DNA from: a bacterium
GTDB lineage: Bacteria > Patescibacteriota > Minisyncoccia > Phycocordibacterales > DATDWN01
DNA length: 58,523 nucleotides
Direction of reading: 5' to 3'
NCBI GenBank assembly: GCA_037134875.1
Contig: JBAXLH010000005.1
Coordinates: 1 to 58,523 of the forward strand
The translations under genes were made by a program, and so were the position numbers. The number at the start of each line of letters is the position of its first letter. Position 1 is the stretch's first letter. This document shows, in pieces, positions 39,902 through 58,523 of the stretch. Below the pieces are notes generated by a model. It worked only from the letters and a program-made list of their open reading frames with translations. It searched no databases and was not told where the DNA came from.

Positions 39902-41107
39902 TTAGGCTACTTTTTCAATAATTCCCCCACCGAGACAAACCTCTCCGGTATACAAAACAGCAGATTGACCGACAGCTACACCATTTTGAGGCACTTCAAA
40001 ATCAATACAATATTCATTATCTTGTTTTGTAACAGTACACCGTTGTTTTTCTTGTCTGTATCTAATTCGCACAGAACAGACAAAAGGAAAAGCTGGTTCT
40101 TGTCCGGAAATGAAATGCAAATTTTTGACAGTGATTTTTTTGGTTGAAAAAACAGTTTCTTTTTCTGTCTCTTTGTCTGCAACAGTAATCGTATTTTTTT
40201 CCAAATCTTTTGACACCACAAAAAGTTTTGGACTGTTTGCGGTTTTTTTGATTATTTCAAATCCATGACGCTCACCGATGGTAGAAAATATTGCACCGTT
40301 GTGTTTGCCGATGACTTCACCTTTTGTATTTAGAACATCGCCAGGTTTTTCTGAAATATAATGAGCCAAAAATTCCTTCATATCGAGTTTACCCAGAAAA
40401 CAAACTCCTTGACTATCTTTTTTGGTAGCTGTCGGCAAGCCAAACTTCTCAGCGAGCGTTCTGACTTCCGGCTTAGTCATTCCACCAATAGGAAAAAGAA
40501 TATGTGAGAGCTGGTCTTGACTTAGTGTGTACAGAAAATATGACTGATCTTTGTTTTTGTCGACAGATTCGTGGAGCTCAAAAAACTCAAAATCTTTTGA
40601 ATGGGAATGTTCTGACGGAACATTGCGCAGGCCGACGGGCTGAGCACGAAGAAATTTGCCAGCAGGCAAATATTCTGTTTCCGGCAGAATATTCCCTGAA
40701 AAATATTTTGAGTTTTTATGCACCACGGCATAGTGTCCCGTCGCAACATAATCAGCTCCCATTTCAAGAGCTTTTTTGAGAAAAACACCGAACTTTACAT
40801 ACTTGTTACAAAACACGTCCGGGTTTGGTGTGCGACCGACGCGATATTCGTTTATCATATAATCTGCAACCTCTTTTTTATATTCTTCCTGACAGTCCAG
40901 TGTTATAAACGGTACACCGAGCGTCGCACAAACTCGCATTGCATCCCGTCGTTCTTCTCGCCAATTACACTCAAGAAAATCAGGATTCCAAACACGCAAA
41001 AAAACTCCAGTCACATCGTAGCCCTGTCTTTTGAGCAAAGCCAAAGCAACAGAGCTATCCACTCCACCAGAAACTCCCACAAAAACTTTTTTTCCTTTTG
41101 AGACCAT
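39902..41107 (-). CDS. mnmA: tRNA 2-thiouridylase MnmA with a ~40-aa insertion
   Basis: SGGVDS, TPNPDVFCN, ATGHY, KDQSYFL and SQGVCF. Confidence 0.96.
   Translation of the reverse strand: MVSKGKKVFVGVSGGVDSSVALALLKRQGYDVTGVFLRVWNPDFLECNWREERRDAMRVCATLGVPFITLDCQEEYKKEVADYMINEYRVGRTPNPDVFCNKYVKFGVFLKKALEMGADYVATGHYAVVHKNSKYFSGNILPETEYLPAGKFLRAQPVGLRNVPSEHSHSKDFEFFELHESVDKNKDQSYFLYTLSQDQLSHILFPIGGMTKPEVRTLAEKFGLPTATKKDSQGVCFLGKLDMKEFLAHYISEKPGDVLNTKGEVIGKHNGAIFSTIGERHGFEIIKKTANSPKLFVVSKDLEKNTITVADKETEKETVFSTKKITVKNLHFISGQEPAFPFVCSVRIRYRQEKQRCTVTKQDNEYCIDFEVPQNGVAVGQSAVLYTGEVCLGGGIIEKVA
40581..40717. repeat. Palindromic element inserted in-frame in mnmA
   Basis: Perfect 13-bp outer inverted repeat aaaaactcaaaat/attttgagttttt enclosing at least three hairpins. 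Confidence 0.8.
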
Positions 41108-57998: not shown

Positions 57999-58259
57999 AT
58001 CTTTTTTATTTTAAGAGAAGCGGAGACTGTGTGTGGACGAGACACACAGCGCCGGCTAATCGCCAGACTGCCCCTCTCTTCCCTTTTTACCTGCTGTGAC
58101 AAAAAGAGAAGAAGTGAGGTTCCAGCGCATTTTCAATGATCTTTCCTTACTTATATTATATCACTTTTTTATTAAAAAAACAGCCCTGATTTATATACCA
58201 AACTTGCATAGAATAAAAAATAATGTAAAATAGAATTTGTCATTTTGAGTAGTAAATAA

Positions 58260-58487
58260 GGGCCCTTAGCTTCCGGTAGAGGCCCGAATGAGTTTTGAAA
58301 ATTTAATATGGGCCCTTAGCTTAGTTGGTGGAGTGAGATTGGGGTGGGACCCAATCGCAAGACCGGAGCGCGACGGCGCGAGGTGGGGTCGAGAGATTTT
58401 TCAGCAGAAAAATACTCGTGACACTCATTTGCCAAATGAGGCTAGTGGGTTCTAAAATAAGTTCAGTGAAGTTTGAAAATTTAATAT
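58260..58487 (+). pseudogene. Two decayed tandem copies of the tRNA-Ala 5' region, the second carrying an ~88-bp structured insertion
   Basis: gggcccttagctt starts at 58260 and 58310; tttgaaaatttaatatgggcccttagcttagttggt is repeated before 58310 and 58488. Confidence 0.75.
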
Positions 58488-58523
58488 GGGCCCTTAGCTT
58501 AGTTGGTAGAGCGCCTCATTTGC
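58488..58523 (+). tRNA. tRNA-Ala(TGC), 5' part; truncated by the window end
   Basis: GGGCCCT-TA-GCTT-AGTTGGT-AGAGC-G-CCTCA-TT-TGC; G3 fits Ala identity. Confidence 0.85.

Follow-up and report, generated by a model that had tools for sequence, protein, structure and literature searches.

A three-hairpin RNA module within a partial tRNA-Ala copy upstream of the only tRNA-Ala gene of a Patescibacteriota bacterium

Introduction

Islands integrated into tRNA genes (tDNA) come with a working tRNA and a co-oriented end fragment of it, and a 5' fragment lies upstream of the gene (Islander, PMC4383910). The crossover sites known for such islands are the anticodon loop, the T-loop and the junction of T-arm and acceptor stem; the islands are at least 2 kb long, and only about 4% of them (159/3919) have a 5' fragment (PMC4383910). 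Much shorter repeats can be numerous in a bacterial genome, R. felis having 728 Rickettsia palindromic elements (RPEs) (PMC1166351). Here we describe a 58,523-nucleotide stretch of DNA (the window; contig JBAXLH010000005.1 of GenBank assembly GCA_037134875.1, forward strand) from a bacterium of the Patescibacteriota (Minisyncoccia; Phycocordibacterales; DATDWN01), whose genome we call G000. The last 264 nt of the window are three starts of one tRNA-Ala, and the middle one is split by an 89-nt structured RNA module that recurs in partial copies of other tRNA genes across related genomes. An earlier note, made from the sequence alone, had remarked on the triplication and on a hairpin-forming insert in the middle copy.

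Like the Islander islands, this array has a co-oriented 5' fragment upstream of the working gene with foreign sequence between the two, and tandem arrays occur. Unlike them, it has neither an integrase nor an open reading frame (ORF). The interval from the fragment in the middle unit (unit 2) to the tRNA, insert plus spacer, is an ORF-free 154 nt, as opposed to at least 2 kb; the breakpoint lies at the end of the D-stem (24|27 in tRNA positions); and the module sits within a longer tRNA duplicate, with tRNA sequence continuing past the insert. The earlier note had found duplication of a 5' end atypical of integrase attachment (att) sites, and the lack of an integrase, the interval of <200 nt and the D-arm breakpoint agree with it that this is not a classical att scar.

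The likeness to RPEs is one of description: about 100 nt, protein-less, hairpin-forming, in a reduced genome, and found in noncoding DNA, RNA genes and reading frames. By description, too, the module is set apart from them. It has 2 full copies in the G000 genome, lies almost exclusively in spare tRNA copies and always in sense, and consists of three hairpins that covary independently and in whose loops many bases are invariant.

The RtT, or tyrT-linked, repeats of E. coli (RF00391) are likewise short structured noncoding units that are cotranscribed with a tRNA and bracketed by partial tRNA copies. Unlike these and other 3'-side tRNA-linked elements, the module lies on the 5' side, in a D-arm breakpoint, has a first hairpin (P1) of its own, and has no antisense tRNA piece closing its fold. 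No Rfam match of the module to RtT was obtained.

Repetitive extragenic palindromic (REP) sequences consist of GTAG and then a short hairpin. REPs, REPINs (REP doublets) and their REP-associated tyrosine transposases (RAYTs) resemble the present case in that short structured noncoding repeats are involved, and G000 has one RAYT-like gene. To judge from sequence, tRNA D-arms may themselves look like REPs, the commonest breakpoints falling just after (G)TAG and TAGAG. Unlike REPs, however, the module occurs in many genomes from which RAYT is missing, does not flank the RAYT gene, and is no simple palindrome or doublet. Palindrome-associated transposable elements (PATEs) derived from IS200/IS605 have subterminal hairpins at both ends, cause no target duplication, insert strand-specifically 3' of a short target and use a Y1 transposase in trans. 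The module has hairpins at both ends (P1 and P3), shows no target duplication (2 nt are lost) and is strictly sense; its upstream flanks end in AG or GG, and it has no consistent transposase partner and no TnpB. Among small noncoding repeats and insertions bracketed by tRNA fragments, it is a well-defined new RNA family.

Results

Anatomy of the array

The window is contig C5 of the 771-kb, 18-contig, 100% complete genome G000. The sequence confirms the three tRNA-Ala 5' units where the earlier note had placed them (from 58260, 58310 and 58488), and the array is one working tRNA-Ala gene preceded by two decayed, nonfunctional partial copies of itself. Its parts are these:

58260..58309, + strand: unit 1, a module-free decayed partial tRNA-Ala; alignment to leader plus tRNA gives positions 1 to about 29 and 38-43, some internal stretches being deleted
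58310..58333, + strand: unit 2 part a, tRNA-Ala positions 1-24 (acceptor 5' strand and D-arm), with one A>G change (GGTGGAG)
58334..58422, + strand: 89-nt structured RNA module, replacing tRNA positions 25-26; covariance-model match of 112.8 bits
58423..58441, + strand: unit 2 part b, degraded anticodon arm (positions 27-43, by alignment), ACTCATTTGCCAAATGAGG
58442..58452, + strand: degraded piece CTAGTGGGTTC, able to pair with the unit 2 acceptor 5' strand via G-U pairs
58471..58487, + strand: second leader copy, GTTTGAAAATTTAATAT, abutting the working tRNA
58488..58523, + strand: unit 3, the opening 36 nt of the intact single-copy tRNA-Ala(UGC), with the remainder at C2:56-93

Unit 1, to which the earlier note had ascribed the 5' acceptor strand and a shortened D-arm, is by this alignment a shorter partial copy. 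It reads GGGCCCTTAGCTT-CC-GGTAGAG-GCCCG-AATGAG and then has an 18-nt leader (58292-58309), which directly precedes unit 2 (58310-58487). Short module-free units of this type are also found in genomes G012 and G076. The A>G change in the first part of unit 2 recurs in spare Ala, Ile and Asn copies of relatives. Beyond the module, the anticodon arm is damaged and the T-arm is gone, both as the earlier note had stated. The pseudo-anticodon loop has TTTGCCAAA in place of TTTGCAA, which with 2 extra nt makes 9 nt in total; the expanded TTTGCCAAA loop is also present in G012, and four genomes of genus g8 have a 3-nt expansion. The further statement that no acceptor 3' strand was left needs a small correction. 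The degraded piece that follows the anticodon arm, also given as GCTAGTGGGTTC, can pair with the 5' acceptor strand and is probably a remnant of the acceptor 3' strand that stayed when the T-arm was deleted. After it come a spacer and the 17-nt leader copy. That leader (58471-58487) and tRNA positions 1-24 form a direct repeat of ~41 nt with unit 2, on which unequal recombination could act.

The earlier note's view of unit 3 as intact is borne out by extension onto contig C2. The 55 nt that close the window are identical to C2:1-55, and C2:20-93 is a complete tRNA-Ala(UGC) with the G3:U70 identity pair, the sole tRNA-Ala gene that ARAGORN finds in G000. In public metagenome data, a 1675-nt contig (Ga0194054_10042084) covers units 1-3 and 1389 nt of C2 at 100% identity. 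Because it spans both the array and the C5-C2 join, these are real and not a scaffolding artifact; the collapsed or mis-scaffolded repeat that the earlier note had thought of as a flaw is contradicted by it. Even on this contiguous contig ARAGORN called only unit 3, and neither unit 1 nor unit 2, whether or not introns were allowed.

A structured RNA family

The insert that the earlier note had described as hairpins in the middle copy is 89 nt long and has three of them: P1 (58334-58359), P2 (58362-58384, with a GACG loop and a GA-rich internal loop) and P3 (58388-58422, with an AGCA loop). All three covary across relatives. A first, MAFFT-based alignment of 11 copies already had the three hairpins, with 14 of the 30 pairs changing on both sides. 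A covariance model was then built and 35 copies were collected for pair statistics. Standard pairs form in 98.6% of the pair cells, versus about 44% when the partners are slid, and 27 of the 30 pairs show compensatory change, values that none of 500 column shuffles attained. The alignment of the 35 copies was fitted to the model and is biased toward the structure for that reason, but since the slid controls and the earlier MAFFT-based alignment agree, we regard the covariation signal as real. Many unpaired bases of the module are invariant. One G-U pair is retained in 31 of the 35 copies, and because it works only on the tRNA-sense strand, the module must fold on that strand. The folding energy of unit 2 (58310-58452) likewise favors the sense strand: -62.3 kcal/mol (z = -5.2), versus -42.0 kcal/mol for the antisense.

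No match at gathering score was found in the window with Rfam 15, and relaxing the threshold to E<=10 added nothing but chance matches and the truncated tRNA of unit 3; full-text searching of the literature turned up no description of such elements. The three-hairpin module is apparently an undescribed structured RNA family.

We also considered whether the partial tRNA might have a role at the RNA level through a closing helix between its 5' strand and the sequence past the module. Such a helix holds for unit 2 (z -3.6) but is not conserved, the median z being -0.35 with only 5 of 28 loci below -2, and we rejected it. A subfamily of the module at four loci of G012 (L094-L097), whose members are 83-93% identical to one another, ends in GTGGGG rather than GTGAC. 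None of these copies is in a tRNA context; their flanks resemble one another (...GTCATTCCCGTGCAGACG, module, AATCCAGGG...), and they may have been inserted in another repeat.

Spare tRNA copies and breakpoints

The context of the module was read from 34 nonredundant full-length copies in fetched loci. In 29 of them a tRNA lies on the same strand within 400 nt, and the flanks of the module are pieces of that tRNA, nearly always of matching identity. At least nine tRNA amino-acid identities host the module. Of the other copies, one is nested in another module, and the rest are in non-tRNA contexts or located at contig ends.

The breakpoints follow a regular pattern, with the module in place of nt 25-26 (24|27) or nt 11-12 (10|13), or else in the D-loop or the T-loop. 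The upstream flank runs from the leader through position 24 in about 14 copies (Ala, Asn, Ile-GAU and Ile-UAU) and ends at position 10-11 in 7 copies of the first set (Phe, Ile, Asn and Arg) and in a further Val case. Other upstream endpoints are positions 4 (Gln), 15 (Thr), 19 (Gln/Glu) and, in the T-loop, 51-52 (Gln and Glu). Downstream, the tRNA sequence restarts at position 27/28, 13, 20 or 56; at L037, for example, positions 13-35 follow the module.

An intact gene usually lies 18-220 nt downstream of the module copy and sometimes upstream of it, and among the examined loci no case was found in which a module-bearing copy is the sole copy of its tRNA. All the tRNA-linked modules are co-oriented with the tRNA. 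At least 14 distinct contexts are all sense, which makes an orientation-blind process unlikely.

Order of duplication and insertion

Loci without the module bear on the order of events. Empty tRNA-Ala loci occur within the family (G018, G002 and G004) and beyond it, and the tRNA-Ile locus of G043 has a spare partial copy (positions 1-35) without a module. In other species the same spare tRNA-Ile copy holds a module at 24|27 or at 10|13, and the other site is then free of a scar. At tRNA-Ile, therefore, the duplicate came first and was invaded more than once. Relative to the unoccupied G043 copy, the module takes the place of CA or CT after AG, which gives an approximate target of AG^CN^C. Two further cases point the same way: one module is nested in the P1 loop of another, and a spare tRNA-Gln copy holds two modules.

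Arrays of 2-4 tRNA-Ala units are present in several genera. That of G012 has four units, short module-free ones included; that of G076 has three, the first module-free; and that of G014 has two identical occupied units. In each genome the pseudo-5' part follows the local tRNA sequence, and at the C5/C2 junction the assembly breaks exactly at the ~40-nt repeat. Unequal recombination of the ~40-nt leader-plus-5' repeats would explain the triplication, the tracking of the local tRNA by the pseudo-5' part and the assembly break.

The interpretation put forward in the earlier note, element insertion into the tRNA followed by rescue through tandem duplication, is partly supported. Insertion is upheld by the empty tRNA-Ala loci behind the same promoter-like block (below) and by the unoccupied spare tRNA-Ile, and tandem duplication by the arrays of 2-4 units and the identical pair in G014; the order, insertion and then rescue, is not, as the duplicate came first at tRNA-Ile. 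Three things went beyond the view of that note: the conserved RNA family, its at least nine tRNA identities, and the twin of this locus that G000 has at tRNA-Asn.

At the tRNA-Ile loci of genera g8 and g2 (e.g., L023, L024 and L045) we also observed a motif, CTCCTTACAGGAG-CTGTACACCTTTTGG, after the module. This motif is a multicopy repeat, 92-97% conserved across genomes, that has many other sites in those of g8 and g2 and none in G000. Where it follows the module at tRNA-Ile, pairing of its distal part with the tRNA trailer places the tRNA on a long stem.

Promoter-like sites

Two promoter-like sites flank or lie within the array:

58203..58233, + strand: conserved promoter-like block CTTGCATAGAATAAAAAATAATGTAAAATAG (TTGCAT, 16 nt, TAAAAT immediately preceded by TG), 26 nt ahead of unit 1
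58429..58458, + strand: putative promoter-like site (TTGCCA, 18 nt, TAAAAT), 10/12 matches in a consensus scan

Among relatives the first block has the consensus CTTGC[AT]T ... TGTA[AG]AAT. It lies 21-78 nt ahead of the first unit at occupied tRNA-Ala loci (G003, G005, G058 and here), and at the empty tRNA-Ala locus of G002 it lies 59 nt ahead of the tRNA itself. The consensus promoter scan passed over the block in the window, whose first hexamer matches at only 3/6 positions. Taken as a promoter, it precedes either the first unit or the tRNA of the empty locus, so that the array would sit between the native promoter and the gene, in the pre-tRNA leader. The second site is about 25 nt before the working tRNA, and its first hexamer, TTGCCA, arises from the 2-nt expansion of the pseudo-anticodon loop; it may be a co-opted internal promoter.

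Distribution and related elements

With the covariance model the module was found in 60 of 63 genomes of the family, at 1-15 copies each. Of 150 sampled other genomes of the class, 12 matched, more weakly and mainly with a 3'-side type behind tRNA genes. Among named genomes, those closest to G000 are MAGs of Candidatus Zambryskiibacteriota and Taylorbacteria, which makes it a Parcubacteria-group bacterium of the candidate phyla radiation. Full matches (112 bits) in G000 are confined to the Ala and Asn copies. Another three, of intermediate score, are located behind or between tRNA genes, and about 20 weak ones (23-55 bits) are dispersed long-hairpin repeats with the P2 and P3 motifs in common. 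One such weak relative (28 bits, with P2/P3 motifs) is in the window itself, at 40609-40676, within a 401-codon ORF (39902-41107, minus strand). Two pattern scans of 2.9 million viral contigs (IMG/VR) did not find the module. The Asn copy belongs to the twin locus:

G000 contig C1:50139-50687 (locus L002), strand not given: tRNA-Asn positions 1-23, an 89-nt module, a decayed remainder and then an intact tRNA-Asn

The module at this locus is 93-95% identical to the Ala module. The intact tRNA-Asn(GUU) lies 84 nt beyond the remainder and has a 279-nt intron of its own in the anticodon loop, and ARAGORN finds it at C1 only with introns allowed. The Ala module of G000 is closer to Asn modules (identity of 0.97 to that of G008 and 0.93 to another) than to other Ala modules (0.79-0.89). 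The Ala junction at position 24 is patchy, occurring in 11 of the 63 genomes and 6 of 14 genera.

On its 3' side (C2 about 100-255; also L088), the tRNA-Ala of G000 has a terminator hairpin and then a small structured element as well (about 114-255), with hairpins that have the AGCA and GACG loops of the module. The first part of this element is an inverted T-arm copy (AGAGATTCGAAC), and its end is a direct copy of the last ~20 nt of the tRNA. The copy reads ...GGGTCCACCA, versus ...GGGTCCACAAAT in the gene, and contains a CCA that the gene does not encode.

Other genes and loci

G000 has a single-copy gene for a 217-amino-acid (217-aa) RAYT-like Y1 (HUH) transposase, packed between housekeeping genes at C7:7860-8510 (L050/L052). 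The protein has the HUH and Tyr motifs, its NCBIfam score of 68.9 is below the cutoff of 80, and no module lies beside the gene; genomes of the family have 0 to 9 RAYT paralogues. A diversity-generating retroelement lies at C10:17932-21540 (L051), with a 327-aa reverse transcriptase, Avd and two ORFs whose C-terminal segments are nearly identical and would be the template and variable regions. In a relative (locus L058, G020:C2:17900-19400) two small hairpins come after a partial tRNA-Ala (positions 1-17), together with a GIY-YIG-like ORF of about 80 codons that has its stop codon within the intact tRNA-Ala, a protein-coding insert in the same layout of 5' fragment plus intact gene. At C9:117-204 of G000 (minus strand) ARAGORN reports a tRNA-Ser with the unusual anticodon ACU adjoining tRNA-Ser(GCU).

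Discussion

Why does an essential tRNA gene stand behind two broken copies of itself, one of them carrying a structured RNA? We lean toward the reading that the module is a mobile or formerly mobile element lodged in redundant tRNA copies and transcribed with the tRNA. On this view the only tRNA-Ala gene would have had its 5' leader lengthened by partial copies, in tandem, of its own leader and 5' region, one of which carries the module. The module, mobile now or in the past, would prefer the sequence of tRNA D-arms and T-arms. A hit in a single-copy essential tRNA would be lethal, so that only insertions in redundant tandem copies would survive, and such copies would arise, multiply and become homogenized by unequal recombination between the ~40-nt leader-plus-5' repeats. 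The whole array would be transcribed within the pre-tRNA from the conserved promoter upstream of unit 1, and the RNase P cut at the 5' end of the tRNA would free a leader RNA containing the module. The variety of host tRNAs, the patchiness of the loci, the several insertion sites and the similarity of modules across loci all suggest mobility.

Several observations weigh against that reading. The copies within a genome are old and diverged (identity of 0.78, versus 0.73 between genomes), so no recent transposition or burst is visible. At tRNA-Ile the module and spacer are conserved at 0.84-0.85, close to the tRNA (0.87) and far above the upstream DNA taken as background (0.52); decaying junk should not stay so conserved, and this suggests selection at the level of the host. 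The module lacks the target-site duplications and terminal inverted repeats that usually mark DNA transposons. No mobilizing enzyme was identified among the RAYT, reverse transcriptase, TnpB and small GIY-YIG candidates: RAYT occurs in only 35 of the 63 genomes, versus 60 for the module, and G016 has 12 modules and no RAYT; the sole reverse transcriptase of G000 is the one in the diversity-generating retroelement, next to its Avd gene; TnpB is absent from G000; and so is any small GIY-YIG nuclease of the kind suggested by the G020 locus. Finally, transcription and processing of the array are steps that we infer.

The evidence on a mobile versus a resident module is thus mixed, and we rank the mobile element first and a resident small RNA second, most of the anatomy being common to both. 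A resident small RNA gene that benefits the host, placed in pre-tRNA leaders or trailers where it would obtain strong constitutive transcription and RNase P 3' ends for free, with the partial copies as by-products of recombination, is possible, though in our judgment rather unlikely. It would account for the very strong conservation of the structure and the many invariant unpaired bases, for the presence of at least one copy in 60 of the 63 family genomes, for the constant sense orientation, for old copies without bursts, and for a tRNA-Ile module and spacer conserved about as well as the tRNA beside upstream DNA at background. It would also fit the retention of the module in streamlined genomes of 0.5-0.9 Mb, although the flanking direct repeats should ease its deletion by pop-out. 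It is harder to square with a copy number (1-15) and host tRNA that differ among genomes and with the lack of any universal locus, the Ala junction at position 24 being held by only 11/63. Different sites of one spare copy have been hit, insertions are nested and doubled, and a related module lies within a protein-coding frame in the window. No structural role of the partial tRNA flank is conserved, and neither an expression platform nor a partner gene is evident.

Remnants of the attL/attR type, left by an integrase-mediated element that restored the tRNA with its own 5' part and then lost its cargo, so that module plus spacer are what is left over, as in a cis-mobilizable remnant, seem improbable to us. 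The layout is island-like, with a co-oriented tDNA end fragment, the 5' one upstream, as the Islander rules have it; 5'-fragment islands do exist (159/3919; PMC4383910); G020 carries a different insert, the GIY-YIG-like ORF, between tRNA-Ala positions 1-17 and the intact gene; and the promoter block remains beside the first fragment. But neither an integrase nor any ORF occurs in the 18-220-nt interval at about 30 loci, the D-stem breakpoints (10|13 and 24|27) are outside the known crossover sites, and the module was not found on the 2.9 million viral contigs. Moreover, the tRNA restarts past the module (positions 27-43 here, 13-35 in L037), which places the module in the interior of a longer copy rather than at the boundary of a repeat. 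As a compact structured RNA at a defined tRNA position, the insert might be thought an intron or the gap of a split tRNA-Ala, removed from the RNA to make unit 2 functional, and true tRNA introns do occur in these genomes (279 nt in tRNA-Asn of G000, 196 nt in tRNA-Arg of G013). We consider this very improbable. Unit 2 has no T-arm, a 9-nt anticodon loop and a degraded acceptor 3' strand, an anatomy that contradicts an intron-containing tRNA of either the group I or the archaeal type; ARAGORN with introns allowed (-i) makes no call and Rfam matches no intron, so that the known intron-containing tRNA against which the earlier note had warned was not found; flanks of module-bearing copies decay freely in relatives (e.g., L032); and an intact copy of the same identity stands alongside wherever the sequence extends far enough. 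As for an assembly artifact, a collapsed or mis-joined repeat at the contig end, the window does stop inside unit 3 and the assembly does break exactly at the ~40-nt repeat. Yet a separate public contig covers the array and 1.4 kb beyond it at 100% identity, and many other genomes show the same layout within assembled contigs, which leaves an artifact scarcely credible.

A more far-reaching reading, which we hold to be doubtful for now, is that the module is a new RNA-level genetic element or noncoding RNA of bacteria of the candidate phyla radiation (CPR): an autonomous three-hairpin fold that would be expressed from pre-tRNA leaders, would recognize tRNA D-arms and T-arms as RNA or single-stranded DNA, and would spread into tRNA sequence, with spare copies as the sole viable landing pads. 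The strict sense orientation, the fold that depends on a G-U pair, the structure-related targets and the lack of a linked enzyme all fit such an element without proving it. It would parallel the elements that live in rRNA genes and are cotranscribed with them, although the module has no protein gene of its own.

An RNA family that has no Rfam model and in which 27 of 30 pairs covary is a concrete target for RNA-seq and biochemical work in CPR (Parcubacteria-group) bacteria, whose noncoding RNAs are almost unknown. The 5'-side and 3'-side tRNA-linked elements are tied together by their common hairpin building blocks. For those who work with these genomes, the ~40-nt direct repeats of the arrays break assemblies, and the tRNA fragments can be mistaken for att sites, introns or pseudogenes. 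The tie between a tiny protein-less element and tRNA genes, right beside an essential working gene, is regular and so far undescribed, and it is relevant to how selfish or domesticated elements persist in genomes of <1 Mb in which almost every gene is single-copy.

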